This document shows positions 4,785 through 49,563 of a stretch of DNA of 49,957 nt, in pieces; the stretch's first letter is position 1; each line of letters opens with the position of its first letter. This DNA is from a virus (lineage: Duplodnaviria > Caudoviricetes). The DNA lies in the IMG/VR virus record IMGVR_UViG_3300008255_000170, positions 1 through 49,957 of that record; one strand, written 5' to 3'. A program made the position numbers and the translations under genes. A model generated the notes under the pieces. It saw only the letters and a program-made list of their open reading frames with translations, made no database searches and was not told where the DNA came from.

Positions 4785-4990
4785 TGGACAACGCAACCTT
4801 ACTCACTGAGGCAAAAGCAGCCTATCACGACTTAATGACGGGCAGTGCTGTGGTATCAGTTTGGTACCAAGGCCGCCGTACAGAATTTAGACCAGCGGGT
4901 GCCCAGCAATTAAAAAGCTATATCGAAGAATTAGAACGGCTAAACGGTGGAATTGGGAAGCGTAGATCCCCTGCAGGAGTAACTTTTTAA
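4784..4990 (+). CDS. Head-tail joining protein gpW
   Basis: AKAAYHDLMTG..VVSV...GRRTEF...LKSYIEELE...RRSPAG matches the lambda gpW pattern. Confidence 0.88.
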   Translation: MDNATLLTEAKAAYHDLMTGSAVVSVWYQGRRTEFRPAGAQQLKSYIEELERLNGGIGKRRSPAGVTF

Positions 4991-6570
4991 TGCAGTATTC
5001 AAAGTTAGTCGATGCCGAAGGGCAACCTATTCCCTTAGCCAGTTTTGGCCGTTCCATGGGTGGTGAAATAGCCTCTTGGAAAACCAGCCCAAAGTTAACC
5101 GATGAATCCTACTTACCGATTAAGGGTGATGCAGATTCAAAGGCTGAGGACTTGATCCAAAACCACGGGATAGCTTCCGGTAGCGTACAAACCCACGTTG
5201 ATAACATTGTGGGCCACCAATTCCGATTAAATGCCAAACCGCTATATCAGCGATTAGGCATTAGCCATGAAGATGCGCGTTTATGGGGCAAAGATACTGA
5301 GGCCGCTTTTCTAGAGTATTCCGAGGATACCCGCTGTTATATCGATGCCGAAGAACGCCGAACTTTTACTATGTTAATCCGTGATGCTGTTCGCGGTCAT
5401 TTAACCACAGGTGAGGTGATGGCCGCTGCAGAGTGGATTAATCACGATGGCAGCCCATACCGCACCGCGATAAAGATGATATCGCCCCATAGGGTATGCA
5501 ATCCCAATGGTGCAATGGATACGACCAGTTTAAGAGGCGGTGTAAGGCTTAATAAATATGGGGCAGCAAAAGCCTATTGCGTTAGACAAGCCAATGATAA
5601 CAACTTTGGTTTTAGCCTTGGCCTTGGCGGTACTTGGAAAGAAATTAAGGTTTATAAACCTTGGGGCCGTAAACAGTTTATCCATATTTTCGATCCTAAT
5701 GGTGATAGTAATTGCCGTGGTACTACAGGATTTATTTCTGTCCTCAGCCGCTTAAAAATGCTGGACAAGTACCAAGGCGTAAGACTGCAAAACGCCATAA
5801 TTAACGCCATGTATGCCGCCACTATTGAGACAGAGCTAGATGCAGATACCGCCTTCCAGATTATTGGCGGTGATACCAATGGATCTAAGAAACTACTCGA
5901 TTATATGGGCACTGTTGAGGCTTATCACTCAAGCGCCAACATCACCATGAATGGGGTAAAAATCCCCCATTTAATGCCTGGTGAAAAGTTTAAGTTAAAT
6001 GCCCCAGGTAACGTAGATAACGGCTTTGCCGCCTTTGAAAAGTCCATTTTGCGCTATGTAGCTGCTGGTTTAAATATCAGTTACGAGCAGCTTGCAAAAG
6101 ACTACAGCCAAGTGAGCTATTCATCGGCCCGTGCTTCTTTAATGAATGAATGGCGTTACTTTCTTGGCCGTAGAGCAATTATTGCCGCCCGTTATGCGTC
6201 CGAGATTTATCAATTGTGGCTAGAAGAAGCGATTAACTTAAATATCATCAAATTGCCTCGAAAAGCTCAGTTTAACTACTATGAAGCCCGTGCTGCTTGG
6301 TCAAGAGCTAGTTGGATTGGTGCAGGACGTTTAGCCATTGATGGTGTGAAAGAAGTAAAAGAAGCGCTGTTAAGGATTGAAGGCGGCTTATCTACCTATG
6401 AGAAAGAATTGTCGATCATGGGTGAAGATTATCAAGAGATCTTCGAGCAGCAAGTAAGAGAAACAGAAGAACGCCGTGCAGCAGGATTACCACCACCAAG
6501 CTGGGCGAGTGCAGAGCAATTTGCGCCAACAGAAGGTCAAGATAATGGAAATACTGCAAGCGCTAACTAA
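4990..6570 (+). CDS. Portal protein, lambda gpB family
   Basis: 526 aa; VAAGLNISYEQLAKDYSQVSYSSARAS and IDGVKEV motifs. Confidence 0.93.
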   Translation: MQYSKLVDAEGQPIPLASFGRSMGGEIASWKTSPKLTDESYLPIKGDADSKAEDLIQNHGIASGSVQTHVDNIVGHQFRLNAKPLYQRLGISHEDARLWGKDTEAAFLEYSEDTRCYIDAEERRTFTMLIRDAVRGHLTTGEVMAAAEWINHDGSPYRTAIKMISPHRVCNPNGAMDTTSLRGGVRLNKYGAAKAYCVRQANDNNFGFSLGLGGTWKEIKVYKPWGRKQFIHIFDPNGDSNCRGTTGFISVLSRLKMLDKYQGVRLQNAIINAMYAATIETELDADTAFQIIGGDTNGSKKLLDYMGTVEAYHSSANITMNGVKIPHLMPGEKFKLNAPGNVDNGFAAFEKSILRYVAAGLNISYEQLAKDYSQVSYSSARASLMNEWRYFLGRRAIIAARYASEIYQLWLEEAINLNIIKLPRKAQFNYYEARAAWSRASWIGAGRLAIDGVKEVKEALLRIEGGLSTYEKELSIMGEDYQEIFEQQVRETEERRAAGLPPPSWASAEQFAPTEGQDNGNTASAN

Positions 6571-7894
6571 TCAGCCTTTAGCTCTAGATAAAGCTTGGGC
6601 AAAAAATTACTTTTCCCATCTTCTAAAAAAGCAAAATATCAGTCTGAGGGATAACTCAGGACTGATTGAAGCTGTTGATAAAGTCAAGATTAAAGCCATC
6701 TTAGGTGGCGAGTTTCATTTTACCGAAGGTGAGTATTATCGGGTTGTGGATGGTGTGGCTTGTATACAGGTCATTGGTCCTCTGGCTCACCGTTTTAGTT
6801 GGTGGAGTTGGGGATATCGTGAACTGGCAGGGAAGATTAAGGCTGCATTAAAGGATCCTGCAGTACACGCCATTTTGCTGGATACCGAAACACCAGGCGG
6901 CACAGTTGCTGGGTTATTCGACTTTGCCCGTTTTATTAAACAGGCCAGTGAGAAGAAACCAATTTATAGCCTGATCAACGATATGTCTTGCTCTGCTGGT
7001 ATGGCAATTTCATCACAAACTAAGAAGCGCTTTATTACGCAGAACGGCATTGCTGGTTCTATTGGCGTAGTCATGCTGCATATCAATCAAGGTCCATGGT
7101 TAGAGAAGGTCGGCATTGAAGCCACGCTTATATATTCAGGTGAACATAAAGTCGATGGCAACCCATATGAATCTTTACCTGATGATGTGCATAAGAACTA
7201 TAAAACCCAATGTGATCAGCTAAGACAAGAGTTTGCTGAGTTAGTGGCCAGCAATATGGACATGAGCATAGATCAGATATTGGCGACTGAGGCGGCCACT
7301 TATCGCGGCCAAGAGGCTATTGATATTGGACTTGCTGATCAAATGGTCAATGCCTACGACATTATCGACATTATTAATGATTCAAACCAAACCGCCCATT
7401 TCAACTTCATAGGTACCAGTATGGAAAATCCAAATAGCACAACCGTTGACGCTACTACCGGCGCACCTGCCGTAGCTGCCTCGGCAAAAATCCAAGAGCA
7501 AGTTGCTGCAGTACAACAACAGCAAGAAGCCAGCACGACAACAGCAGAAACCACAGTTGTAGTCGGAGCAGGCGGATTACTGGGCGCCTCGGCAGAACGC
7601 GACAGAATAAAGACCATTATGGGTAGCGAACAAGCTAAGGCATCGCCAGCACTTGCAGAACACTTTGCTTACAACACAGATATGAGCGCCACGGAAGTCA
7701 CTGCTGCGCTAGAAGCTGCCGCTAAAGATAAGCCTAAAACCGAAGCGAGCTCTCAAAGTGGTATTAATTCTGGATTTGAAGCTGCCATGGAAAACGGAAA
7801 CCCAGATATTGGCGCCGATGCTGGCGAATTATCCGGCGATGACAAAGTGATCGCAGATTCATTGGCTGTTTATAACGGCGGATTTAAAGCCTAA
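6545..7894 (+). CDS. Prohead protease, S49 family (lambda gpC-like), probably with an internal in-frame scaffold start at 7421
   Basis: DTETPGGTVAG, CSAG, GSIGVV and HKVDGNPYE motifs; low-complexity C-terminus with AERDRI starting after ATG 7421. Confidence 0.9.
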   Translation: MEILQALTNQPLALDKAWAKNYFSHLLKKQNISLRDNSGLIEAVDKVKIKAILGGEFHFTEGEYYRVVDGVACIQVIGPLAHRFSWWSWGYRELAGKIKAALKDPAVHAILLDTETPGGTVAGLFDFARFIKQASEKKPIYSLINDMSCSAGMAISSQTKKRFITQNGIAGSIGVVMLHINQGPWLEKVGIEATLIYSGEHKVDGNPYESLPDDVHKNYKTQCDQLRQEFAELVASNMDMSIDQILATEAATYRGQEAIDIGLADQMVNAYDIIDIINDSNQTAHFNFIGTSMENPNSTTVDATTGAPAVAASAKIQEQVAAVQQQQEASTTTAETTVVVGAGGLLGASAERDRIKTIMGSEQAKASPALAEHFAYNTDMSATEVTAALEAAAKDKPKTEASSQSGINSGFEAAMENGNPDIGADAGELSGDDKVIADSLAVYNGGFKA

Positions 7895-8360: not shown

Positions 8361-9386
8361 ATGGAAACACTGACTACTAATCAGATGCTTGGTATTACGG
8401 AAAAGCTATTTAAGTTTAATCCGTTCTTTTTAATGATGTTCTTCCCAAATGAAATGACTTTTGAAACCGAAGAAATTCATTTCGATAAGATTAGCCAGAG
8501 TGGCAAGCTTGCCCCATTTGTTAGCCCTATGGTTGCGGGTAAAGCAAATCGTAAACAAGGCTTTGCTCGTGAAACCTTGCTGCCAGCTTATGTAAAACCT
8601 AAGGATATTATTAATCCTAGCTTACCAATCAAGGTTAAGGTGGGTGAAAAATCTGGTGGTACCTTAAGCGCAGCCCAGCGCCGCCAATGGTGGAGAACTC
8701 ACCTCTTAGGCGAACAGGAACTCAAGATCCTTCGCCGTGAAGAATGGATGGCAGTACAAGCAGTTGTTACGGGTAAAGTGATGATCGTGGGTGAGGATTA
8801 TCCAGCTCAGGAAGTCGATTTTAAACGTGATGCTGGTAATAACATCACCTTAGTTGGCGCCGCTAAATGGGCTAACTGTGATATCAATACCTATGACCCA
8901 ACTGATGATGTTGAAGATTGGGCCATGTTGGCAAACGGGCCTATTAATATCGCAGTAATGGATAAAACCGCGTGGCGTTTATATAAACGCTTTAAAGTGG
9001 TTAAGGACATGCTGAAAACCGACTCAGGTTCGCGCACTAAAATGGAAACTGGGCCAAAAGATTTGGGCATGACAGCCAGCTATAAGGGCACCTTTGGTGC
9101 TGATCTAGAAATCTGGGTTTATAACGGCCAGTATGAAGATGATACCGGCAGTAAACAGCCATTCTTACCCGATGGTACAGTGATCCTAGGTAATGATGGT
9201 TATCAGGGTGTTCGCGCCTATGGTGCTATTCAAGATGCCAAGGCGAATGATCAAGGTGTATTCGCTGCCAAGCGCTACCCTAAAAACTGGTTCACCGATG
9301 ATCCCTCTGTCGAAAACATTATGACGCAATCTGCGCCATTGATGGTGACTGAGGATGCGGATGCCTTTGTGGTTATCCGTATCTAA
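8361..9386 (+). CDS. Major capsid protein, lambda gpE family
   Basis: APFVSPMVAG, PAYVKPK, RREEWMAVQAV and MTQSAPL motifs. Confidence 0.95.
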   Translation: METLTTNQMLGITEKLFKFNPFFLMMFFPNEMTFETEEIHFDKISQSGKLAPFVSPMVAGKANRKQGFARETLLPAYVKPKDIINPSLPIKVKVGEKSGGTLSAAQRRQWWRTHLLGEQELKILRREEWMAVQAVVTGKVMIVGEDYPAQEVDFKRDAGNNITLVGAAKWANCDINTYDPTDDVEDWAMLANGPINIAVMDKTAWRLYKRFKVVKDMLKTDSGSRTKMETGPKDLGMTASYKGTFGADLEIWVYNGQYEDDTGSKQPFLPDGTVILGNDGYQGVRAYGAIQDAKANDQGVFAAKRYPKNWFTDDPSVENIMTQSAPLMVTEDADAFVVIRI

Positions 9387-9457: not shown

Positions 9458-9919
9458 ATGAACAAAACACAGCTTATTCATGCGATTGTGGCTGCCTCAG
9501 CAACACTTGGCATTGAAGCAATGACAGATGGCGATATTAAGCAGTTATCCGCTCATCTTGATAGCCTAAATCAGCGTATTACTGAGAAAAATGCTGATGC
9601 TGGTAATGGCGATACTGGCACTGGTGATGCTGGCACTGGCGATACAGGTAATGGTGATACCGACATTAGTCAACTAGATACTGGCGGTGATACTACCCAG
9701 AAGGATCCAAAATTGTTAGGCGACGATGGCACTGTTGAGCCACAAACAGGTGGTGGTACAACACAACCAGATCCAAAGGTAATGGTTCAATCCAGTGTGA
9801 CCATTGAAACCCGCCGTCCAGATGGCACTAAATTGCGTTTAGTTGCCGATAAAGCGACCGAGATCACCGCTGATGATTATGCGCTGATTAAAGTGTTGGA
9901 TTATGTCAAGACGGTTTGA
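9458..9919 (+). CDS. Head morphogenesis protein at the gpFI position, with a G/D/T-rich linker
   Basis: Synteny after the major capsid gene; helical N-terminus, low-complexity linker carrying GGDTTQKDPK and GGGTTQPDPK. Confidence 0.6.
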   Translation: MNKTQLIHAIVAASATLGIEAMTDGDIKQLSAHLDSLNQRITEKNADAGNGDTGTGDAGTGDTGNGDTDISQLDTGGDTTQKDPKLLGDDGTVEPQTGGGTTQPDPKVMVQSSVTIETRRPDGTKLRLVADKATEITADDYALIKVLDYVKTV

Positions 9920-24285: not shown

Positions 24286-24765
24286 ATGAAGATATTATGG
24301 TTGGTACCATTATTTTTTTGCATACCTAGCTATGCGGAAGTATATCAGTGCAATGGAGTTTATCAGTCTGATCCCTGCGGTGAAGATAGCCAGCCAGTTC
24401 CATTAAAGTCTGGATCAGTTGTCGATTACCACTTACCAGACCAGCGAATAAAAAATGCGGTTGATGTAAGTACCAGCAACAATAATACAATGGCTCAAAA
24501 TAATGAGCAAAAGCATAGCTGTGCTGGTTATAAGGTTGATAAAGACTCTATTCGTTTTAGGCAAACGACCATGTGCATGACTGAGGGGCAATTACTCAAA
24601 ATAGCCGGTCCACAGCAGTACAGTGTTTATGAGTATTACAAAGATGGTCGCCACTATAAGCAATACCGATTCACAGAACCACGGGCGGGGTTCCCGTCAG
24701 CACCATTAGTTGAAGGTGGTTATGTTATTGATCCCGGTAGCTCTAGTAACTTTGTTAACCATTAA
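24286..24765 (+). CDS. Exported protein, DUF4124-like N-terminus (moron-like)
   Basis: Strong AAGGAG RBS; signal peptide ending SYA; EVYQCNGVYQSDPC. Confidence 0.65.
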   Translation: MKILWLVPLFFCIPSYAEVYQCNGVYQSDPCGEDSQPVPLKSGSVVDYHLPDQRIKNAVDVSTSNNNTMAQNNEQKHSCAGYKVDKDSIRFRQTTMCMTEGQLLKIAGPQQYSVYEYYKDGRHYKQYRFTEPRAGFPSAPLVEGGYVIDPGSSSNFVNH

Positions 24766-25105
24766 TTGAGTTAAGTATTTTTATCGCACGTAGTAAGGCC
24801 ATCTTTTGATTGTAATCAAGTTGGCCTAAATAAAACTGCAGTTCTTTATTCGTCAGTTCCTCGGTGTCTGCGTCACTTGTTTCAACCCTCAGAATTTCGT
24901 TAATATCCCAGCCAAGCCCTAAACCTATAATAAGCTGATCGGTTGAGATCAGTTGTTTACCTGTCTCTATTTTAGATAGTCTTGATGTTGAGCAATTAAG
25001 CTTTGCCGCTAAAACTTCTTGAGTTACGCCATTTTTTTTGCGCCAACATTTGACACGCAACCCAATAAGCTCTTTAATACTTTCCTTAGAGGAAATATTA
25101 AGCAT
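24755..25105 (-). CDS. XRE-family HTH transcriptional regulator
   Basis: IGLRVKCWRKKNGVTQEVLAAKLNCSTSRLSKIETG. Confidence 0.85.
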   Translation of the reverse strand: MLNISSKESIKELIGLRVKCWRKKNGVTQEVLAAKLNCSTSRLSKIETGKQLISTDQLIIGLGLGWDINEILRVETSDADTEELTNKELQFYLGQLDYNQKMALLRAIKILNSING

Positions 25106-25274
25106 AGTATTTTTCCATCGTGGAAATTGATAATGTCTTAATAAACAAGGTTATATAAGTTATTGATTCCAAGCAAATCCCTGATAAAAAATAGCATATT
25201 TGTTAACTTGCTAGTTCAGGATAAGATAGCTTTGATCACAACAAAAATACCAATATTTAACATGGAGTTTAGCA

Positions 25275-25502
25275 ATGGTTTCGTCAGTAAACAGTCAATC
25301 ACGCCCTTTAGTGCAAACATCGGCTAGTGCTGCAGGCATAAAAGAGCCTTTAGTCAACCCTATCACGCCAGATGATTCAAGCCTTTCAAAATATCAAGAT
25401 AAGGTAACGATAACGGGGGCTTCTGAAAAGTCACCTGTTTATGAGCCTACAGTCGGCGGCGGCACTACTCAGCCAGATCCTAAAATCCAACAGGTTGAAT
25501 AA
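25275..25502 (+). CDS. Small hydrophilic protein / possible peptide precursor carrying GGGTTQPDPK
   Basis: GGAG RBS; 75 aa; shares a decapeptide with 9458..9919. Confidence 0.7.
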   Translation: MVSSVNSQSRPLVQTSASAAGIKEPLVNPITPDDSSLSKYQDKVTITGASEKSPVYEPTVGGGTTQPDPKIQQVE

Positions 25503-25521
25503 GTAGTTTTGGAGATACGAC

Positions 25522-26088
25522 ATGGAACAAGTTGTATATGAGGTCTATAAGTTTGTTTTTAACCCTATATCGGTACTGATAATTTGTGTTGCCTGCTTTT
25601 GGTTTGCAGCTAATCACCGCAATTTTTTTAGCGTATTAATTATTTTATCGTTGATAAAAGTTATTGATGTATTAGCAAATAAGTTTTTGCTTGGACCAAA
25701 TTGGGTGGCCTATTACAGCTTTTATATTGCATTGGACTTTATAACCATCCTTTGTTTGATTTTTAGAGAAGCCATCACAAATCGCTTCTTTACTAGCTTG
25801 GTTTATCAACGCATATTTGCAGAATATGTATTAATTGGCATTTATGCCTTATCCATCCTTTACAACATTCCTACCTTTATCGAGCAGTGGACACGAAAAA
25901 CACCTTATATATTGAATTACCTATACAGTCAGGGATTGACCTCTCCGCCGATGTTCTTCTATGACCATTACGTGATGTTTAAGGGGGCACTTGGAACATT
26001 TGAGCATTTTATCATTGTATTTTTGGCTTTTCAGTCAGCAAAAATCAGCCAAGCAAAACTAAGGAGGCAAACCAAGGATGGAGTCTAA
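25522..26088 (+). CDS. Multi-pass membrane protein of unknown function
   Basis: GGAG RBS; about five hydrophobic segments; AT-rich. Confidence 0.75.
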   Translation: MEQVVYEVYKFVFNPISVLIICVACFWFAANHRNFFSVLIILSLIKVIDVLANKFLLGPNWVAYYSFYIALDFITILCLIFREAITNRFFTSLVYQRIFAEYVLIGIYALSILYNIPTFIEQWTRKTPYILNYLYSQGLTSPPMFFYDHYVMFKGALGTFEHFIIVFLAFQSAKISQAKLRRQTKDGV

Positions 26089-26458
26089 TAACCTATCTAC
26101 TGTCATTAATAGCGCTAGAATAAGCAAAGAGAAGGCTTGCAGTATTATGCAGGTTTCACCACAAACACTTGAGCAATGGCTTAATGGTGACGGTGAACCT
26201 TCTTGGTCACAAAGTCTGAGATTGTTGCTTTATCTATCTACTCAGTTTAAATCCTATGGATTACCAGAAGAAAAGGAATTTGATACGGGTTACATTGAGA
26301 ACATTGAGGACCTAGAAAAAGACGTTATTCAAGCATCGAGCACATGCGATCTCGTGTTTCAAACTTTGGATGAAGATAGTATGCACTATGGTGTAGCGTG
26401 GGGTTTGTCGGAAAAGCTTAAGGGTATAGTGGACAAGGTGAAGCAATTAAGTCGATAA
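26078..26458 (+). CDS. HTH-domain protein
   Basis: ISKEKACSIMQVSPQTLEQWLNGDGEPS; AGGAGG upstream; overlaps the membrane protein stop. Confidence 0.7.
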   Translation: MESNNLSTVINSARISKEKACSIMQVSPQTLEQWLNGDGEPSWSQSLRLLLYLSTQFKSYGLPEEKEFDTGYIENIEDLEKDVIQASSTCDLVFQTLDEDSMHYGVAWGLSEKLKGIVDKVKQLSR

Positions 26459-26485
26459 GAAAATGGGGCGTAACGCCCCACTTTT

Positions 26486-26766: not shown

Positions 26767-27759
26767 CTATTTATCTTTAGCCAAGTCAAGCATTAAACTA
26801 AGAAATTGTTCTATTTCTTCCTTTTGATTATTCGTCAATTCAGAAATATCAATGGTAAAGCGTTTTTCAGTATCGGTAACATTGATTTTACCGTTCCCAT
26901 AACTGCGTTTTAGTGGGCTTGGCTTATCATCTTTTTTAGTGATTAATCCAGCGCGTTCTTTACAGTAATCAACCAAGTAATTAGTCAGCTCTTGAGCGGC
27001 CATGCTGTGGTCATTTATAACGCTTCTTGATGCAGAGAACATATAAGGCGAGATGTTGGCTTCATCATCGATTCGCCCTTCTTCTGGTTCCAGTGTTTTA
27101 AATGAATAGCGGTGCAATGCTTCTGCCATATCTGCGCTTAAGTCGTTTATATCATGGTAAAGGTTCACGATATATTTAGGTAACTCAGCAGCTTTTATGC
27201 AGCGGGTAATTACCCGGCGACTGACTTTTTCACCCATTTCATTTAGAAATTCTTCTGCTTTCCTCAAACTCCCAAGTTTACGAACTAAGCGGCGATAACG
27301 GCGGCCTTTTTCGATTGCTGATGGCTGCTTATGGAAGTTACCCATGATTGAGTACATTTCCATTTCATCATCGGTTAGATCGGCCACCAATATTTTGTAA
27401 TCACGCTGACTTAAAATACAGCTCATACGGCGGCGGCTGCCGTCTGCGACCTCAATCGGTCCCACTGACGACTCGCGACCAATTGCCCATGTTGTCATGC
27501 CATTTTTACGAATTGACGGCAAAATATCATCTAGGGACTTTTCGTCTAACCGATGTTGGTCACGTTCATTTATTGGGCTAACAAAGGTAAAGCCATCGAC
27601 AGCCTCTGCAGGGATCACCCTTGCTGTAAATATCACTTCACGGCCATTATACAAAGTATCAGTAAAGGTATTTCCAGCCTGCAGGTTGGTTAATTGGGCC
27701 GCAATGTTGCGCTTCACGCGACCGGCACTAGGGATTAGGTTTTCGCTAATGTTTTCCAT
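26767..27759 (-). CDS. parB: Partition protein ParB/SopB
   Basis: NERDQ, LDDILPSI, IEVADGSRRR (ParB CTPase box), SAIEKGRRY followed by HTH. Confidence 0.92.
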   Translation of the reverse strand: MENISENLIPSAGRVKRNIAAQLTNLQAGNTFTDTLYNGREVIFTARVIPAEAVDGFTFVSPINERDQHRLDEKSLDDILPSIRKNGMTTWAIGRESSVGPIEVADGSRRRMSCILSQRDYKILVADLTDDEMEMYSIMGNFHKQPSAIEKGRRYRRLVRKLGSLRKAEEFLNEMGEKVSRRVITRCIKAAELPKYIVNLYHDINDLSADMAEALHRYSFKTLEPEEGRIDDEANISPYMFSASRSVINDHSMAAQELTNYLVDYCKERAGLITKKDDKPSPLKRSYGNGKINVTDTEKRFTIDISELTNNQKEEIEQFLSLMLDLAKDK

Positions 27760-28901
27760 TATTCAGCGCTCCATATTGGCTCAAGAATGTTTTCTTCAAT
27801 TTCGGTAAAGAGTTCGTCAAAGATATTGGTTGCCTTTTTGTAGGCCGCAAATGAGGTGCGTTCTGTGGCTGTTTGCTCATAGATAGTTCGCATCTTGTCA
27901 TAAGCAATGGGTACCTGAGTCGTCTTTTTTATTGGGTGATCAAGTACCGCTGCGCCCCAAACATTTTTCATTTTGCCAAAGAAAATTTTGGAGTCAGATC
28001 CTGTGGCCGTGTCGTAGTGAGTGCCGAGGATCCTTACCTGAGGTTCCACATTGTGAGCCCCAAACGGCGATAGTAGCTCTTTGAGCATTTGCAGATACTG
28101 CCTGGTACTGTAAAAGCCAAAGCGGTCTACAGGTGTCGGGATAATGATTAGGTCTGATGCAAATACGCACATTACTGTTGATAGGCCAAGGTTAGGAGGG
28201 CAATCAATGATTATGAGGTCATAATCGCTTTTGATTGTCTCAAGTGCTGCAGCAAGCAGCAGATGTGCCGCCACTGCTGTTTTACCACTGTCTCCCATTC
28301 TGGCCACTACATCGTCAACCACGCTTAGCTGCAGGCATGACGGGATGATATCAAGGCTAGGGAAGTAAGTTTTTTGTATGGCATAGTGAGCCGTTTTCTC
28401 TTGGCCCATAAAGTAGGGCAGTAAGGTATGTTCACCCTTTACGTCCACATCTGGCAGTTTACCCATGGCTAGGTTTAATGACCCTTGCGGATCCATCGAT
28501 ACCAGTAAAACGCGGTGCCCTTTCATCGCATGCCATTGTGCTTGGTGCAGCGCTGTGGTGGTTTTATATCCGCCGCCCTTGTGGCCACTGATAGCCTCGA
28601 CAATGCAATAGTCTGATGTTGGCCTAGTACCAAAGATATCGCGAAGTTTATCAATCTGGTAAAGGTCTAAGCCTGCACTTGTTACCCATCCATCGAACAG
28701 CGGATCGGTTAGCTGATTATCAGCCTTGGCGTTATAGATGCGCTGGCGGCTAACACCAATCATTTCCGCCGCCTGGTTAATTGGGAATCTGCGAACAATC
28801 CGGCGGTTGCCGTCCTCAGAAAATTTTTTGATAATTTCTTGCTCGACTAACTGGTCGCTATTGCTTATCAAAGCGTTTATCAGCCTTTCTAAACCATTCA
28901 T
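27759..28901 (-). CDS. parA: Partition ATPase ParA/SopA (type Ia)
   Basis: N-terminal HTH; deviant Walker A HKGGGYKTT; DPQGS; IIDCPPNLG. Confidence 0.94.
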   Translation of the reverse strand: MNGLERLINALISNSDQLVEQEIIKKFSEDGNRRIVRRFPINQAAEMIGVSRQRIYNAKADNQLTDPLFDGWVTSAGLDLYQIDKLRDIFGTRPTSDYCIVEAISGHKGGGYKTTTALHQAQWHAMKGHRVLLVSMDPQGSLNLAMGKLPDVDVKGEHTLLPYFMGQEKTAHYAIQKTYFPSLDIIPSCLQLSVVDDVVARMGDSGKTAVAAHLLLAAALETIKSDYDLIIIDCPPNLGLSTVMCVFASDLIIIPTPVDRFGFYSTRQYLQMLKELLSPFGAHNVEPQVRILGTHYDTATGSDSKIFFGKMKNVWGAAVLDHPIKKTTQVPIAYDKMRTIYEQTATERTSFAAYKKATNIFDELFTEIEENILEPIWSAE

Positions 28902-29321
28902 GCTAATTTCCTCTCGTTATGGATTACAGCCACGTAAAGATATTACAGTTTTAGAGTAAAACAAAGCAAAAGCTGTAAAATATTTTAAAAGTGTGGCACA
29001 GGCAAGGGCTTTTGTCTTTGAAAAATAAAGAGGCGCGGAGCGCAGCCTTTTACGCTTTTTACTGTGCCTAGCTTTAGCGTTTCCGCTTATATGTTGCTGT
29101 TTATAAAGATAGTTAAATGATATCGGCTTAGATGTGGAATAGTTCCATAACAACTGCACCGTCATAAAGTCTAAGTAGGCTAGACAATTTTTAGACCTGC
29201 CAGACAAGGCGAACTGAAAGTAAGAATGCCCAACCAAATAACTGTACTAGCCACAAAGTAACACAATAAAAAGGAGTACAGTTAACGCCGAAGGCCAACA
29301 AGTGTACTTACATCTAATTAA

Positions 29322-29417
29322 TTATTAACTGTACTCACATATATTTCATCAACTGTACTCCTTATCTAGCTAGATAAGGAGTACAGTTGATGAAATATAT
29401 GTGAGTACAGTTAATAA
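29322..29417. repeat. Telomere resolution site (telRL/tos): 96-bp perfect palindrome
   Basis: 48-bp arms centred between 29369 and 29370 (CTTATCTAG|CTAGATAAG), directly upstream of the protelomerase. Confidence 0.92.
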
Positions 29418-29545
29418 GTTTATATACAAGTGAGTACAGTTAAAAAATAGGTACAGTTATTTGTTGCATTGATTGAAAAATGAGCTAGAATGATAATGTC
29501 TAGTTTGTAATTATATTTGTGAGTACAGTTAACGAGGGGTTTATC

Positions 29546-31558
29546 ATGCTAAAAGGTAGTGAGATTTCACTTAACAATAAAAAAGCATTCGCTGATTATT
29601 GTGAGCAGTTGTATTTGGATAAGGCAGAACTAAGCAAGAAGCAGATAACGGACCGCTTAGGCGCTAAGTGTCGCCGGGAACTTAAATCGCTGGGGATCAA
29701 TATGGACAAGGTTGTTATTGATAACCTTAGTGCCTGGCAATTTGAGTTAGATGAAGATGGTGATGCAGGTATTCACACGGTATCTAAGATACTTGGTGAG
29801 TATCGTGATGCCATCAAAGCCATTGGACTAAAACACCATAATATCGAGGCTAATCTACAACGGGCCGTTAAGCACTTAGCTGAATATATCCCTACAATCG
29901 GCGACCAGTTAAAGCCAGATATGCCTTTAAGCACCTTACGTAGAAATCTAACTGTGCTGATTAAGAATGAGCGCCGCCCTGTCGTTAAGGCGTTTCTTAA
30001 AGACATTAAGATAGAACACCATGCATTTTATTTACTGCAGGATGCTTTTGAATGGTCTAGAACTGAGGCGACCAAACATGACAAGGCAAACCTAAAGGCT
30101 AAGGTCAGTAATCAAAAACGAGTTAACCCTGATGACATTATTAACGTGGCTAATGCCCTACTGACTGAAAATATTGCCGCTGGAATAGATGCCGACTATC
30201 AAGCCTTAGCTTGTGGGTTGGCACTGGCAACCGGGCGGCGCCGTTCTGAGATCATGAAAACGGCTCGCTTTGAAATTACCGATACCACACCAGAACATCA
30301 TGTGATGTTTTCAGGCCAGTTAAAGACTAAAGACCGCCGGATTTTTGATGATGTGGTCCCTTATGCTATCCCGACATTAGTTGACCCAAAATTGGCGGTT
30401 GAAGGCTTAAACCTGCTGAGGAAAATCCAAGTCGAACACTGCCACTCTGTTCGCTACGATGATGCCCGTGGCAATCCGGTAGTGCTGTTAGATAAGCATG
30501 GTGAGCCAGTGATGGCCCCTAATAAAGATGGCGAGCTAGAGCCCGTTTTAGATATACCAGTGTTAAGCAAACCAATATCAGATATTTACCATAACGAGGC
30601 AGTGGCAGTTAATTACTCGCAGCAGCTTAATACCCGCTTTAGGCAGATTTTCCAAAATAGTGAACTCGAATTTAGGAATACCCGTGATATCTATGGCGCG
30701 GTAAGTTATCCGCTTTATAAACGTGATGGTGAAGGAGAAAGTGTCTATCGAACCCGTGTTTATGGCCATGCTGGCGAAAGCCAAAAGCACTATGAAAAAT
30801 TTGCATTAGACACCAGTATTCGTGGTATTTGCACTGAATTAAATGAGGACAGCCCGACTCAATACCACTCTGGTTTAGTTAAAGCGCTAAGTGAATTTGA
30901 TAACGAAATTAATGGATACTTACGATCTCCAAATCTTGCCATTATTCACCAATGGGTTAAAAACGAGTTAAAAAAAGGGCTTTCACCCGATGTAATAACC
31001 CCGACCTATATTCGGCGCCATTGCATGGTCAACGGTAAGATGCTCAATTTTAATACAGTAAAAGACTATTACGATTCTGATAAAGCAAAAGGGATAAGTG
31101 TTAATTTTCCAGCTTTGGTTGAAAAGTATGGTGATGTGATGGCCAATATCAACGCAGGAAGGCCAAAGCAGGAAGAACAAGAGCCGGAAGCAGTTAGAAG
31201 CACTAAACCAAAAATGAAGGCTGTGCGTGGCGATAATGGCTTTTGGCTGGTTGAAATCGATGATGATGTTGATGTGTTCAAGGTCGAAGATCTTAGTCTT
31301 AAAAATTATGCCCAAAGTGAGGCAATGAAAGAAGCATGGTTTAAGTACCAGGCGCAGATAGTTAACCCATGGCCTGAAGTCATGCCGGATCCTGAAATTA
31401 AAAAATTAGGGAATGGAAAGACTCAAGTAACGGTTAAAGTCGGTGATATCACTGTGGTCGACTTTGCAAATGGTGATAGCCGCAGTCAGTTAATGCGCTA
31501 TGCAAAACAGGCTTATGAGGCTAAACGCAATGAATACGCTATCAAAAAGGATGCGTGA
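29546..31558 (+). CDS. telN: Protelomerase (telomere resolvase)
   Basis: LALATGRRRSEI, FSGQLKTK, FRNTRDIY, YGH...SQKHY catalytic R-K-R-H-Y set; GAGGGG RBS before ATG 29546. Confidence 0.94.
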   Translation: MLKGSEISLNNKKAFADYCEQLYLDKAELSKKQITDRLGAKCRRELKSLGINMDKVVIDNLSAWQFELDEDGDAGIHTVSKILGEYRDAIKAIGLKHHNIEANLQRAVKHLAEYIPTIGDQLKPDMPLSTLRRNLTVLIKNERRPVVKAFLKDIKIEHHAFYLLQDAFEWSRTEATKHDKANLKAKVSNQKRVNPDDIINVANALLTENIAAGIDADYQALACGLALATGRRRSEIMKTARFEITDTTPEHHVMFSGQLKTKDRRIFDDVVPYAIPTLVDPKLAVEGLNLLRKIQVEHCHSVRYDDARGNPVVLLDKHGEPVMAPNKDGELEPVLDIPVLSKPISDIYHNEAVAVNYSQQLNTRFRQIFQNSELEFRNTRDIYGAVSYPLYKRDGEGESVYRTRVYGHAGESQKHYEKFALDTSIRGICTELNEDSPTQYHSGLVKALSEFDNEINGYLRSPNLAIIHQWVKNELKKGLSPDVITPTYIRRHCMVNGKMLNFNTVKDYYDSDKAKGISVNFPALVEKYGDVMANINAGRPKQEEQEPEAVRSTKPKMKAVRGDNGFWLVEIDDDVDVFKVEDLSLKNYAQSEAMKEAWFKYQAQIVNPWPEVMPDPEIKKLGNGKTQVTVKVGDITVVDFANGDSRSQLMRYAKQAYEAKRNEYAIKKDA

Positions 31559-38725: not shown

Positions 38726-40423
38726 ATGTTTCCTAAAGCGTGTGTCCCATATCAATTACATGCTGCTAAGCCATGGGCCTATGATGCCGAAACGCTGCAG
38801 CCTTTGCTTGAAAACTTCAAGTGGTCAGAACTGACCGAACAGGACTATAGCCGCTATGGTTTTGTTTGCCCTCTGCCAACTTATATGCAGCAGGAAATTA
38901 CCGCCGAGGTATTGCCGCTGGTATATCAAGTTAACAATGTGCTGCTGTTTAAAATCCGCCGTGATGAACGAGTGATCCCGCCAAGCTACATAAACCAGTT
39001 AGTGAATAAAAAAGTCGCTGAGTTTGAAAAGGAAAACTGTACCGTTATTAGCAAAAAAGAGTATGAGGTCATTAAAGAGGAAGTGATTTTAAGTTTAATT
39101 AAGACCGCACCTTATAAAACGGATGTATCTAATTTCTGCATTGATATGGATAGTCGGATGCTGCTTTTCATGGGTACCAGCCGCAGCCGTGCTGAAAGTG
39201 ACCTTGCGCTATTACGTAAAAGCGTTGGCAGCTTGCCCGTGATGCCTGTTGATACTATGCCAATAGATGACCAACTTACTTGCTTATTAGCTAAGTATTT
39301 AGCACGTCAAGAGGAAGGCGATGATCACCCTGAATGGTTAGTGGTTGGCGATTTACTCATTGGCGACCGTTATAGCATGGTGCAGTGTAGCAATGGATCT
39401 AAAAAAGATGGTGAGAAACAATCGGGTACCAAAGCTGATTTAATGAGCCCACGGTTTGCTGCTGCACTCAATGAGAAGTTTGTTATTACTAAGCTTGAGA
39501 TAGGCATTGTTATTAATAGCATATCTGTTTATTTCACCCTTAATGCCAATGGATCATTTAGTGGTATTCAATGGCCGGGTGAGATTGTTTGGCAGTCTGC
39601 AGACGAACACGAGGATCCTATTGCTCGCTTTAATGCTGATATTTTACTGGGCGCAAGCTATCTGCAGGCCATTTGCCATAGCAGCTATAAGCAGATTGGT
39701 TATCGTGAAACCGGCTACGAAAAGCAAGATGAATTAGTGGCGCACCGCCAAGCGCTTGCTAAAACCTCAGGCTTTAAGTTTGCCTATATTCTGGCAGAAG
39801 AACAGCAGATCACCGATGCCGCCACCTTGGGCCATAAGCTTAAGCTGCAAATGGCCGAAGCAGTGGCATTAATGAAGCTGATTAATAAAGAGCGTGAGCT
39901 TGTAGCAAATAACATTGCCGAACATAGCGAGACACAGGCATTGCGATTGGCCGAAGCACAAAGCCAAATTAAAGAGGCATTGGAGCAAGCTGGCGGTGAA
40001 ATTACCGCGATTGATGGTATAGACACACTGTATTCTGCTGCAGTGGAATTTGTACGTGAAAGCCGCCGCGCCTCAGTGAGTGCTGTTCAGCGCCGCTTTA
40101 AGATTGGCTATAACCGTGCCGCTAGACTGATCGATATGATGGAAGCGCAGCAGGTTATTAGCGCTGCTGGGCATAATGGTAGCCGTGAAGTGCTGCAACC
40201 TCCCTCAGAAGTTACCAAGTCTATTTACCCACTAGAAGTGTTGGCAATAGTCGCGCAAGCCTTTAACGACAATCCTCATACCAAAACTGAGATCCGCACT
40301 CAGGCGTTATGCGATAAAGCCAATTCCATGCTGTTAGATAAACATAGCCAAGAAGATATCTTGACCGAACTTAATACCATGCTCGCTCGATGCGAGAAGG
40401 TTGAGGAATCTAAACAGCAATAA
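38726..40423 (+). CDS. rdgC: RdgC-family protein with C-terminal FtsK-gamma winged-helix domain
   Basis: [34 protein letters not shown] (RdgC); [25 protein letters not shown] (FtsK gamma). Confidence 0.85.
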
Positions 40424-47124: not shown

Positions 47125-49563
47125 ATGTCAGCAACAGTTATCAGCTTTGAAGATTTCAACAAAAGCAAATCTGAGTCTATCGAACAAACTGCCATTGTTA
47201 GCCGCCGCCCTGTGTCTGTGTTGGTTCACTGGTCAGAATCTGGCGATTTTGAAAAAGAAACCCTTTATCCATTCGCTGACTTTGAATGCAAGGCATTATC
47301 CTCAGCGTTTGCCCATGCTGGCGGCGGTTATCTTAAAACCAAAATTACCGTCAATTTTGACGATGGCGAAACATACGCTTGCCGTGTCGATTTGGCCGCC
47401 CATGACGAGCTAGGCTTTCAGCACCACGTTTTGCAAATGATTGAATTTTCAAATACTGATAAAGGCCGCGCCGCTTATGCTGCTGATGATTGGCAAGCCT
47501 TACTCAATTTTGTAAAAACCATTGATTTTGATACCAGCGCCGCAAGTATCAAAGAAAATGAAAAATTAGGGATTGAATTAGACCAGATTGCCAAGGCCGC
47601 CGAAAAGGCAGCAGAACAGGCTGCCAAAGAAGCGGCCGACGCAGAGGCTGAGGCGCTGATTTTGGCGATGACAACCGATCCAGAGTTTAGCCATTTAGCA
47701 CAAATTGGTTACTATGCTGACGCCGTGGCTGTGGCTAAAAATATCCGTGCTGATTTAAAAAAGCATTTTAAAGGCTGTAAATTTTCAGTCAGAAAATCAA
47801 CCAGCGGCGCTATTTATATCAATTGGACTGATGGTCCAACTCGTAAAGCGGTTGACAATATTGTTAACCGATATAAAGCGGGAAGCTTTGACACTATGAG
47901 CGATTGCTATGAGTTTGCCGATTCATGTTTTAGCCGCAATTTTGGCAGCGTGTCTTATGTTTTTACCTCGCGCCATACTGAGACAGCGCGAGAGCTTGCC
48001 GAGTTGATTTTTAAGCGTGACGGGCTCGAATGCGACAGCCAAGAAGCATGGGAGCTTTCAAACGAGTTGAGCGAACACGGCGGGGCGTGGACGTATGAAG
48101 GAAAACCGCTTGATGTTGACGCTCTGAGATCCAACGCCAAACCATTGGCCGCGCCAATGGTTGAATTTGTCGCACAAGAAAAGCCAAAGTTTAAGGCTGT
48201 AAACCTTGGCGGCTCGTGGCGTGTTGATGTGAGTTTATACGCTGACAGCGGCAGTTATAGCGGAATTGCCGCCGCCAGTGCTGCCAGCGCTAACCGCGCA
48301 GCGTGGGCGCTGTTTGTTGCCGATTTCGCCCCGTTCGGGCCTTTGCCTCAGTTGATGATCCCTAATCCTAAAGATAGCGCCGCCGTACCTGATTTAGTCA
48401 GCCTTGATGCTGCGAGAGAAAACCAAGACGCAGAACGCGCCGCCCATAGTTTGATCGGTGCGGCGCTGTCTGCTGATTTCATCCCCTATTACAGCGCCGC
48501 AATTGCTGCGCTGGCTGTGTATAGCTCAAAAATAGTGAGATTTTGGGCAGATGAAAACCGCCGTGAAATTGTCGACCGTGAAACATTGATCGGTGCGGCT
48601 GGTCGCGTTCGCTTTAGTGTTGAGCGTTTAAGCACTGAGATCACCCGCTTAATTGACGATTCGATCACTTATGATCTTTATCATGGCAAAGATAGCGGTG
48701 CGTTAGTCGCTGCAGTTGAAGCCGAGAGCGCCCATAATCTAAAAATTAAAGAGCAAAATGCCGCACCCTTTGCGGCGGCCTTTGCGGCTTTCACTGACGG
48801 CATAGAACAGCGCCGCGAACGCTTGGAGCAAAGGGCCGCCAGAGTGAGCGCCGAAAGTGATCGCCGTTATCAAATGGCGCATAACTCAGCCTCTGCTATT
48901 CCATTTGGCCAGCCGATCCTAGTAGGCCACCACAGCGAACGCGCCGACCGCAACCGCCGCGCCCGTATACATGATAATTTCGGCAAAGCCTTTGCTCTTG
49001 CTGATAAAGCGGAATATTTAGCGGAAAAGGCAGAGAGTATAGGATCGGGGGGGATTTCCTCAGCGGATCCGTCTGCTGTGCTGAAATTAACTGAAAAGCT
49101 TGAAGCATTGGAAAAGTCGCAAAACATGATGAAGCAAGCCAATGCAGCTATCAGAACAGGCAATTTAGAAAAGTTGCCAGAGCTTGGGCTTAGTCAGTCG
49201 AATATAGATGAGTTATTAAACCCTCGGCATTCAAATAGGAAAGGATTTCAACCTTGGGCGCTGCAGAACAATAACGCCAACATAAAGAGAGTTAAAGATA
49301 GGATCCGCGAGATAGCGTTAACTCAACAGCCATCGACAGAGGAACCAACGATCCACGGCATAGCAAAGCGAGATCTAATTGATGGTCGAGTTTGTTTTTA
49401 TTTTGAAGATAAACCGCCTGAAGATGTACGCAAGTTACTAAGATCTTATGCTTTCAACTGGGCGCCTAGTCGTAAGGCTTGGGTAAGAAAAGCAACAGCT
49501 AATGGCCTACATGCGGGCAAAGTTATTGCAAAAAAACTAGAGGATTTATACGAAAGTGTTTAG
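47125..49563 (+). CDS. Polyvalent multidomain protein (LPD25-like, LPD29-like, DUF3560)
   Basis: VHWSES...GGYLKTK...YACRVDL; AKNIRADLKKHF...FSVR...WTDGPT...FDTMSDCY; IPFGQPILVGHHSERADR; C-terminal FNWAPSRKAWVR. Confidence 0.75.
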   Translation: MSATVISFEDFNKSKSESIEQTAIVSRRPVSVLVHWSESGDFEKETLYPFADFECKALSSAFAHAGGGYLKTKITVNFDDGETYACRVDLAAHDELGFQHHVLQMIEFSNTDKGRAAYAADDWQALLNFVKTIDFDTSAASIKENEKLGIELDQIAKAAEKAAEQAAKEAADAEAEALILAMTTDPEFSHLAQIGYYADAVAVAKNIRADLKKHFKGCKFSVRKSTSGAIYINWTDGPTRKAVDNIVNRYKAGSFDTMSDCYEFADSCFSRNFGSVSYVFTSRHTETARELAELIFKRDGLECDSQEAWELSNELSEHGGAWTYEGKPLDVDALRSNAKPLAAPMVEFVAQEKPKFKAVNLGGSWRVDVSLYADSGSYSGIAAASAASANRAAWALFVADFAPFGPLPQLMIPNPKDSAAVPDLVSLDAARENQDAERAAHSLIGAALSADFIPYYSAAIAALAVYSSKIVRFWADENRREIVDRETLIGAAGRVRFSVERLSTEITRLIDDSITYDLYHGKDSGALVAAVEAESAHNLKIKEQNAAPFAAAFAAFTDGIEQRRERLEQRAARVSAESDRRYQMAHNSASAIPFGQPILVGHHSERADRNRRARIHDNFGKAFALADKAEYLAEKAESIGSGGISSADPSAVLKLTEKLEALEKSQNMMKQANAAIRTGNLEKLPELGLSQSNIDELLNPRHSNRKGFQPWALQNNNANIKRVKDRIREIALTQQPSTEEPTIHGIAKRDLIDGRVCFYFEDKPPEDVRKLLRSYAFNWAPSRKAWVRKATANGLHAGKVIAKKLEDLYESV

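Follow-up and report, generated by a model that had tools for sequence, protein, structure and literature searches.

A decapeptide shared by a small accessory protein and the gpFI-position protein of an N15-like phage-plasmid, and its possible role as a peptide signal

The locus and the shared decapeptide

The window analysed in the current study, i.e. the whole stretch of DNA, corresponds to the entire virus record IMGVR_UViG_3300008255_000170 (49,957 bp) and was found by Pfam comparison to contain a lambda-like head module, ParA and ParB, a protelomerase and a primase-helicase replication gene. The ParB, ParA and protelomerase genes mark the phage, as judged from its gene content, as an N15-like linear phage-plasmid. 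Because the nearest named relative of one window protein derives from a Shewanella sp. MAG, the host is probably Shewanella-like. A cassette encoding a candidate peptide precursor and a membrane protein is positioned between the tail genes and the partition genes, and is AT-rich, with a GC content of 37% as compared to 45% in the head-tail genes. The features considered here, with their window coordinates and strand, are the following:

8361..9386, plus strand: lambda gpE-type major capsid gene (PF03864, E 2.8e-64)
9458..9919, plus strand: P0004, a 153-aa protein in the gpFI position, with an N-domain, a Gly/Asp/Thr-rich linker containing two motif copies, and a C-domain
9683..9712, plus strand: degenerate copy GGDTTQKDPK (8/10) in the P0004 linker, perfect in the homologues P0008 and P0009
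9749..9778, plus strand: perfect copy GGGTTQPDPK in the P0004 linker
24755..25105, minus strand: P0005, a 116-aa XRE-family HTH regulator (E 1.3e-8), divergent across a 169-nt gap
25275..25502, plus strand: P0001, a 75-aa motif-bearing small protein and likely peptide precursor, with no Sec-like hydrophobic N-terminus (by eye)
25398..25415, plus strand: DKVTIT leader motif (D-x-V-x-(I/L)-(S/T)) in P0001, common to the signal-less precursors of look-alike cassettes
25455..25484, plus strand: decapeptide GGGTTQPDPK in P0001, five residues from the C-terminus and within a 13-residue invariant block
25522..26088, plus strand: P0002, a 188-aa five-helix membrane protein and candidate receptor, with no family match
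26078..26458, plus strand: P0003, a 126-aa protein and candidate output regulator, with a weak N-terminal HTH and an 11-nt overlap with the membrane gene
26464..26480, plus strand: intrinsic-terminator-like hairpin that ends the three-gene run
26767..31558: ParB, ParA and protelomerase genes (PF18090, PF13614 and PF16684)

The lineage is rare, as close relatives of P0001, P0002 and P0004 amount to two to three clusters per protein among 5.8 billion proteins. Scans of viral, metagenome and genome contigs for relatives returned nothing beyond this phage or 99% copies of it, and tblastn of P0001, P0002 and the P0004 homologue P0009 against named phages and plasmids gave no useful match.

A preliminary description of this DNA had reported GGGTTQPDPK from the 75-aa ORF as well as from the product of the gene after the capsid gene, the latter together with the degenerate copy. 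All of these sequences and positions were verified, as was the statement that eight of the ten codons show a different third base when the perfect copies are compared. In a comparison of 55 hand-picked proteins of the window (15,415 aa), this decapeptide was the sole word of at least eight residues common to two of them. Shuffling the sequences 500 times gave longest shared words of five to nine residues (nine being reached once) and never a shared 10-mer, on which basis a chance match was rejected. Recent DNA duplication was likewise rejected, given that the two copies are identical at 22 of 30 nucleotides with the differences confined to third codon positions. The further proposal that the peptide rather than the DNA is conserved was supported in both carriers by the codon divergence and by invariance among homologues. 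Every known carrier possesses one and the same motif, the known lineages of the gpFI-like carrier numbering three only. We conclude that the shared decapeptide is a real and selected feature and that the parts of the locus are unrelated to known systems; its function is what we infer below.

The two motif carriers

The conservation of the motif in homologues, which the preliminary description had made a key question, was found on both sides. In the small protein the decapeptide is invariant in all eight P0001 variants (72–99% identical), and the 13 residues around it constitute their longest invariant run (permutation p 0.0056, a value which overstates independence as the eight variants are related). 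Outside the motif, 31 of 65 columns are invariant. Judging from contigs of equal length, four of the variants appear to share contigs with variants of the membrane protein P0002. No Pfam, PHROG, NCBIfam or PADLOC match was obtained for P0001, and its PDB sequence matches to antibody and flagellin strands were dismissed as noise. Neither a sigma-70 nor a sigma-28 promoter above chance was located upstream of the P0001 gene, the best sigma-28 score being equal to the shuffle median. In the ESM Atlas, which returns no sequences, P0001 and P0002 lie near many unnamed Pseudomonadota clusters (26/30 and 30/30 hits, respectively); the nearest named cluster to P0001 is the Cj0814 family of flagellar-dependent secreted proteins, at 0.89 against a tool bar of 0.9, and is treated as a lead only.

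Concerning the late protein, its earlier designation as a head-morphogenesis protein stands with regard to gene position, directly after a lambda-like capsid gene, while its homology is weak: the homologue P0009 matches an annotated gpFI (of locus L106) at a pairwise E of 0.012, with 28% identity over 94 aa and with the similarity located N-terminally. P0004 is called gpFI-like on account of this position and this match. Searches of the P0004 group against Pfam and PDB sequences gave no match, and PHROG, NCBIfam and PADLOC yielded no useful match for P0004. Two perfect motif copies are present in each of P0008 (92% identical to P0004) and P0009 (56%), i.e. 20 of 20 residues, while the first linker copy of the window phage has decayed to 8/10. 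P0008 and P0009 share 28/46 residues in the N-domain and 30/45 in the C-domain (approximately 62%), and their linkers differ by large indels.

Lambda gpFI bridges capsid and terminase, as described in PMC13595911, and together with the shared word in the gpFI-position protein this permits the reading that P0001 is a decoy which imitates the linker of gpFI and thereby blocks related phages in assembling their heads or in packaging. The motif was nevertheless absent from the protein following the capsid gene in all 27 capsid relatives (viral loci with a capsid 38–52% identical; 27 of 79 loci were examined, and 13 of the 27 records are at least 90% complete), so that few targets would exist for such a decoy. 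A mimic of this type would, moreover, strike the phage’s own packaging, and would leave both the membrane protein and the look-alike cassettes described below unexplained. The decoy reading, one of three mechanisms put forward at the outset, consequently loses ground and is considered very unlikely. Searching the same 27 records with either membrane-protein profile produced no match (0/27), the reach of the family profile being limited as it also missed the P0002-bearing record G039.

The membrane protein, its neighbours and the look-alike cassettes

The description of the 188-aa P0002 as a protein with about five transmembrane segments was borne out by five peaks in hydrophobicity, which begin at residues 11, 34, 62, 98 and 151. 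Lys and Arg residues are concentrated at the C-terminus and in the loop that follows helix 3, and their positions suggest an N-out/C-in topology. No match at a useful score was found for P0002 in Pfam, PHROG, NCBIfam or PADLOC 2.0, libraries that cover described systems only, and its AlphaFold model (pLDDT 47) is too low in confidence for fold comparison with the look-alike family. In the 126-aa P0003, for which an HTH had been claimed, a match to an HTH is indeed present, although it is weak (Pfam E 0.02) and below the cut-off; P0003 has no PADLOC match. The divergent XRE regulator, in contrast, is clear. Since P0001 and P0002 are separated by a 19-nt gap, P0002 and P0003 overlap by 11 nt, and a terminator-like hairpin follows at 26464–26480, the three genes probably form an operon.

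Further cassettes of similar layout were recovered with the scan motifs GNGGGxEPP and GNGxGxEPP, modelled on unnamed Alteromonadales proteins. Viral contig scans identified them at six of 14 loci and subsequently at eight of 92 loci, the latter count being obtained after an automatic flag (L245) was dropped as spurious and an unflagged locus (L241) was added by eye. Two more (G009 and G011) were added from whole-record reading and one (L292) from a control search, while a plasmid cassette of the same layout (L221) was reached via a weak tblastn match. Taken together, these finds represent 11 distinct cassettes, carried by phages and by one plasmid. Each comprises a precursor with one to four copies of G-[NG]-G-x-G-x-E-P-P, followed by a 164–213-aa membrane protein and a membrane-anchored partner of approximately 100–125 aa, the latter being present in 11/11 cassettes. 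The precursor of L096 ends in GGGTEPPDPK, identical to GGGTTQPDPK at seven of ten positions. The cassette genes of G011 lie on either side of two repressor/cro-like genes, which is the single hint that the output of the cassette may be lifestyle control. Elsewhere in the ten other cassette-bearing phage records, extra motif strings consisted of an unrelated one in a 568-aa protein and a DNA-only match in G011.

The look-alike precursors fall largely into two types. Five carry a Sec-like hydrophobic N-terminus (judged by eye, with no predictor), which would place their motif outside the cytoplasm. The five signal-less precursors all possess a D-x-V-x-(I/L) leader (four with the strict pattern and one with the looser DxVTL), as compared to none of the five Sec-type precursors and six of 1563 background ORFs, a background that includes spurious frames and two precursors; the D-x-V-x-(I/L)-(S/T) pattern was picked post hoc, after the sequences had been inspected. 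The 36-aa L292 precursor is neither Sec-type nor leader-type.

A membrane protein of the look-alike family is predicted to consist of five helices (pLDDT 83), the same number as the hydrophobic segments of P0002, and only three columns are invariant among eight family members. The sole match of these proteins is phrog_31674, of unknown function (3/5). Foldseek comparison of the family model with the PDB yielded no match at E 0.001 or better; the best VIA match (Z 8.6, rmsd 3.5, 116 aligned) concerned generic helical bundles, and GPCR and rhodopsin matches were rejected as unspecific (TM 0.39 or less). Similarity to uncharacterised phage proteins of 140–165 aa (TM approximately 0.5–0.6, E 0.12 or more) was non-significant.

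Kinship of the window cassette with these look-alikes is suggested by the precursor. P0001 fits the look-alike precursor type, being short, with a Gly-rich, Pro-ending decapeptide near its C-terminus and a D-x-V-x-(I/L)-(S/T) leader. The window motif differs from those of the look-alikes in that it is without their EPP. Against the kinship, the window decapeptide ranks 6th–7th and not first among 20,461 window 10-mers on the family-motif score, and the third gene of the window encodes a soluble HTH-like protein rather than a membrane-anchored partner. For P0002 itself, global alignment with eight family proteins gave a z of approximately 2.9 over block-shuffled P0002 copies (one to two of 1000 reaching the score), as compared to 11–22 for true family members in left-one-out comparison and 2.0–2.3 for two unrelated TM-rich ORFs. 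Family HMMs did not match P0002, and hhalign returned probabilities of 5% and 0.8%. In view of the lack of an HMM match, the low hhalign values and a z near that of unrelated TM-rich ORFs, the kinship of P0002 with the family is no more than tentative. The membrane proteins of L292 and G011 were rejected as a bridge to P0002 (z 0.2 or less).

A second real motif-carrying protein was present in 0/10 records of other cassette-bearing phages (nine distinct cassettes, three of the records complete), regardless of gpFI-type gene content, and cassettes of this kind do not in general come with a motif copy in a late protein. This leaves room for the view that the cassette is a peptide system in which the linker copies are either the relic of a copied precursor stretch or serve a separate, packaging-only use. 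The decay of one window copy, which the 92%-identical P0008 retains, agrees with this, as does the small sample of three lineages and the frequency with which similar Gly/Pro strings serve as linkers in phage proteins: the string GGG-x-x-x-PDPK was found in some ORF at 62 of 105 viral loci (25 of which had short flanks), the hits being mostly a linker or a spurious frame, and it lay in a precursor next to a membrane protein at four loci, three of which are this phage. Against this, P0008 and P0009 keep 20/20 motif residues despite a domain identity of only some 62% and large indels elsewhere in the linker, and eight of ten codons differ between precursor and linker without a single residue change, a protein-only identity which drift would not give. 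We regard this view as rather unlikely.

A possible interpretation as a peptide signal

The proposal that the motif is a ligand or recognition epitope is thus supported in part, and among the three mechanisms that accompanied it a signalling peptide gains most, owing to the multi-copy and Sec-like look-alike precursors. As these multi-copy precursors, half of them Sec-like, are encoded beside five-helix proteins, an exported peptide that is read by the membrane protein is favoured. Our best explanation, put forward tentatively and with less than even confidence, is a Gram-negative peptide signal that is arbitrium-like but unrelated to arbitrium, with the copies in the head protein being released at lysis.

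Under this explanation P0001 would be a precursor that is exported from the cell, most likely, since it is signal-less, via the flagellar export channel to which its leader points; this leader presumably resembles that of FlgM-type proteins. The exported protein would be trimmed to GGGTTQPDPK, which P0002 would sense on the exterior of the cell; the coupled HTH gene (P0003) and the divergent XRE gene (P0005) would carry the output, conceivably a lifestyle choice such as lysis versus maintenance as a plasmid-prophage. The gpFI-like P0004, a late and cytoplasmic protein, would be set free by lysis alone and would thereby supply a burst-coupled dose of signal. The small gene would in this manner let lysogens signal how many they are, and the late protein would do the same for lysing cells.

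Two further alternatives place the action of the motif within or at the same cell. The first is an intracellular antidote or self-token: P0002 would be a toxic, abortive-infection-type protein held off by P0001 at its cytoplasmic face, and the late protein would re-supply the motif so as to spare the phage’s own lytic cycle. Such a scheme requires no kinship with the look-alike cassettes and is consistent with the lack of a Sec-like signal in both window carriers, which would make them cytoplasmic, and with the position of the cassette, which is AT-rich and fills an accessory slot bordered by the tail genes and the partition genes. The Sec-like signals of five look-alike precursors and the repeated cores of many, however, fit an exported ligand better; P0001, P0002 and P0003 are without a PADLOC match, and the look-alike cassette is present on many plasmids in several genera with no sign of a need for a late protein. 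An antidote is accordingly judged unlikely. According to the second alternative, which we consider improbable, both proteins carry the motif as a site at which a single shared partner docks, or at which it processes or modifies them, inside one and the same cell or at its envelope; this partner could be a protease or an exporter of the host, or P0002 in the role of maturase or exporter. The membrane protein showed no catalytic or signalling domain that would indicate a receptor role, and Gly-Gly and Pro-rich multi-copy cores resemble the precursors of modified peptides. The presence of only three invariant columns in eight family membrane proteins is, in contrast, unlike an enzyme, and precursors with a Sec-like signal of their own would need no dedicated exporter.

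If the peptide-signal explanation is extended to the look-alikes, a bolder picture emerges, which we hold to be possible though doubtful: a widespread and undescribed means of communication among phages and plasmids of Gammaproteobacteria, unrelated to arbitrium, in which a Gly/Pro decapeptide is exported and recognised by a membrane receptor of five helices, and to which this lineage would have added the signal in the linker of its packaging chaperone. Each burst would then announce a lysis count to lysogens nearby and to cells that have just been infected. A signal within a late protein would gauge lysis directly and not infection; to our knowledge, no known system measures lysis directly in this way. 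As the genome supplies the ligand sequence, a synthetic ten-residue peptide makes the idea immediately testable. Even in the absence of signalling, the retention of one word by two unrelated phage proteins and the recurrence of an unnamed three-gene cassette require explanation.

Comparison with known systems

A search of openly accessible full-text literature revealed no description of the motif or the cassette. The individual parts may nonetheless be set beside known systems. Lambda gpFI is a protein of two-domain build, and a protein of this kind would stay outside the virion and be spilled at lysis. P0004 resembles it in the location of its gene right after the capsid gene, in the weak N-terminal similarity seen with its homologue P0009 and in the combination of two domains with an acidic linker, yet differs in that its linker holds two copies of a word that is also encoded by an accessory peptide gene. 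The motif is missing from the gpFI annotated in L106 and from 27 further proteins encoded at the gpFI position.

P0001 appears to share with flagellar-secreted proteins of the Cj0814/FlgM type a low-complexity, Ser/Thr-rich leader with D-x-V-x-(I/L)-(S/T). It differs from them in that it matches no Pfam family, that its gene is without a sigma-28 promoter, and that a Gly/Pro decapeptide takes the place of an anti-sigma domain in its C-terminal part.

In the agr (AgrD/AgrC) and ComX/ComP systems of Gram-positive bacteria, a precursor gene lies beside that of a polytopic membrane protein which binds the peptide from outside, and the window likewise has a precursor gene next to a polytopic membrane protein. 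Unlike those systems it has no histidine-kinase domain, receiver or response regulator, and its 188-aa protein is without a cytoplasmic domain.

A functional parallel in phages would be the arbitrium system (AimP-AimR-AimX) of Bacillus phages, described in PMC12988980 and PMC11945551 as phage peptide communication through cytoplasmic RRNPP receptors. The window resembles it in placing a short phage precursor beside a candidate receptor and, putatively, in allowing an infection count to steer lysis and lysogeny. AimR, as presented in the same sources (PMC12988980, PMC11945551), is a cytoplasmic RRNPP/TPR protein (HTH-TPR, about 365–390 aa) whose peptide is imported by Opp, whereas the window has a TPR-free membrane protein of five helices as its candidate receptor, the hosts would be Gammaproteobacteria, and extra copies of the motif reside in a late protein. 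No TPR or AimR match above the cut-off was detected in P0002, P0003 or P0005, the sole signal from the AimR model being the HTH of P0003 (E 0.13; 11 bits, where the cut-off is 70). As compared to an arbitrium-type precursor, P0001 has its motif near the C-terminus and no hydrophobic signal by eye, although five look-alike precursors have one. If the interpretation is correct, the use of a membrane receptor in a Gram-negative setting would represent a second, independent solution beside the arbitrium of Bacillus phages.

Cassettes on resistance plasmids

A look-alike cassette, comprising a precursor with a short Gly-rich motif, a membrane protein and a membrane-anchored partner, was located on a plasmid:

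L221, 1577-2635: precursor, membrane protein and partner; plasmid NZ_CP143636.1

It also occurs in 55 further plasmid records that are near-identical to this one; on these resistance plasmids of many genera, the cassette is flanked by sul1/ISCR1 on one side and by an ABC transporter gene on the other. Annotation of the membrane ORF is often missing, and the copies at two loci (L223 and L224) are broken. The members of this cassette's cluster include a Rheinheimera protein.

Phage cassettes of unusual layout

Two phage loci depart in their arrangement:

G011, 4786-7604 (locus L340): split look-alike cassette, interrupted by a repressor/cro/cII-like region
L292, 1950-3400: diverged look-alike cassette in a P2-like tail region

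In the former, the membrane protein and its partner lie on one side of the interrupting region, while a precursor with a Sec-like hydrophobic N-terminus (judged by eye) and two Gly-rich motifs lies on the opposite side. The latter consists, in order, of a 36-aa motif ORF, a 400-nt gap, a 185-aa five-helix protein and a membrane-anchored partner. At a further locus, L093, a perfect sigma-28 consensus (TAAA, 15 nt, GCCGATAA) was identified upstream of position 1022, approximately 67 nt 5' of a Sec-type precursor; this consensus was absent from the other nine upstream regions examined.

Further features of the phage and fold comparison

A long imperfect palindrome directly 5' of the protelomerase gene (window 29300-29438) is likely the telomere-resolution site. 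The window also encodes a polyvalent protein of 812 aa (47125-49563), in which LPD25, LPD29 and DUF3560 domains are combined, and a 565-aa protein in which an RdgC domain is fused to an FtsK-gamma domain (38726-40423). A 100% identical copy of the phage (L090, G001) resides inside a genome bin labelled Saccharibacteria, a placement that probably reflects mis-binning.

When the predicted model of the look-alike family membrane protein (mbd12081976be) was compared with viral structures, many uncharacterised proteins of 140-165 aa from phages of Edwardsiella, Caulobacter and Rheinheimera appeared alike, at TM scores of approximately 0.5-0.6, although the matches were not significant.
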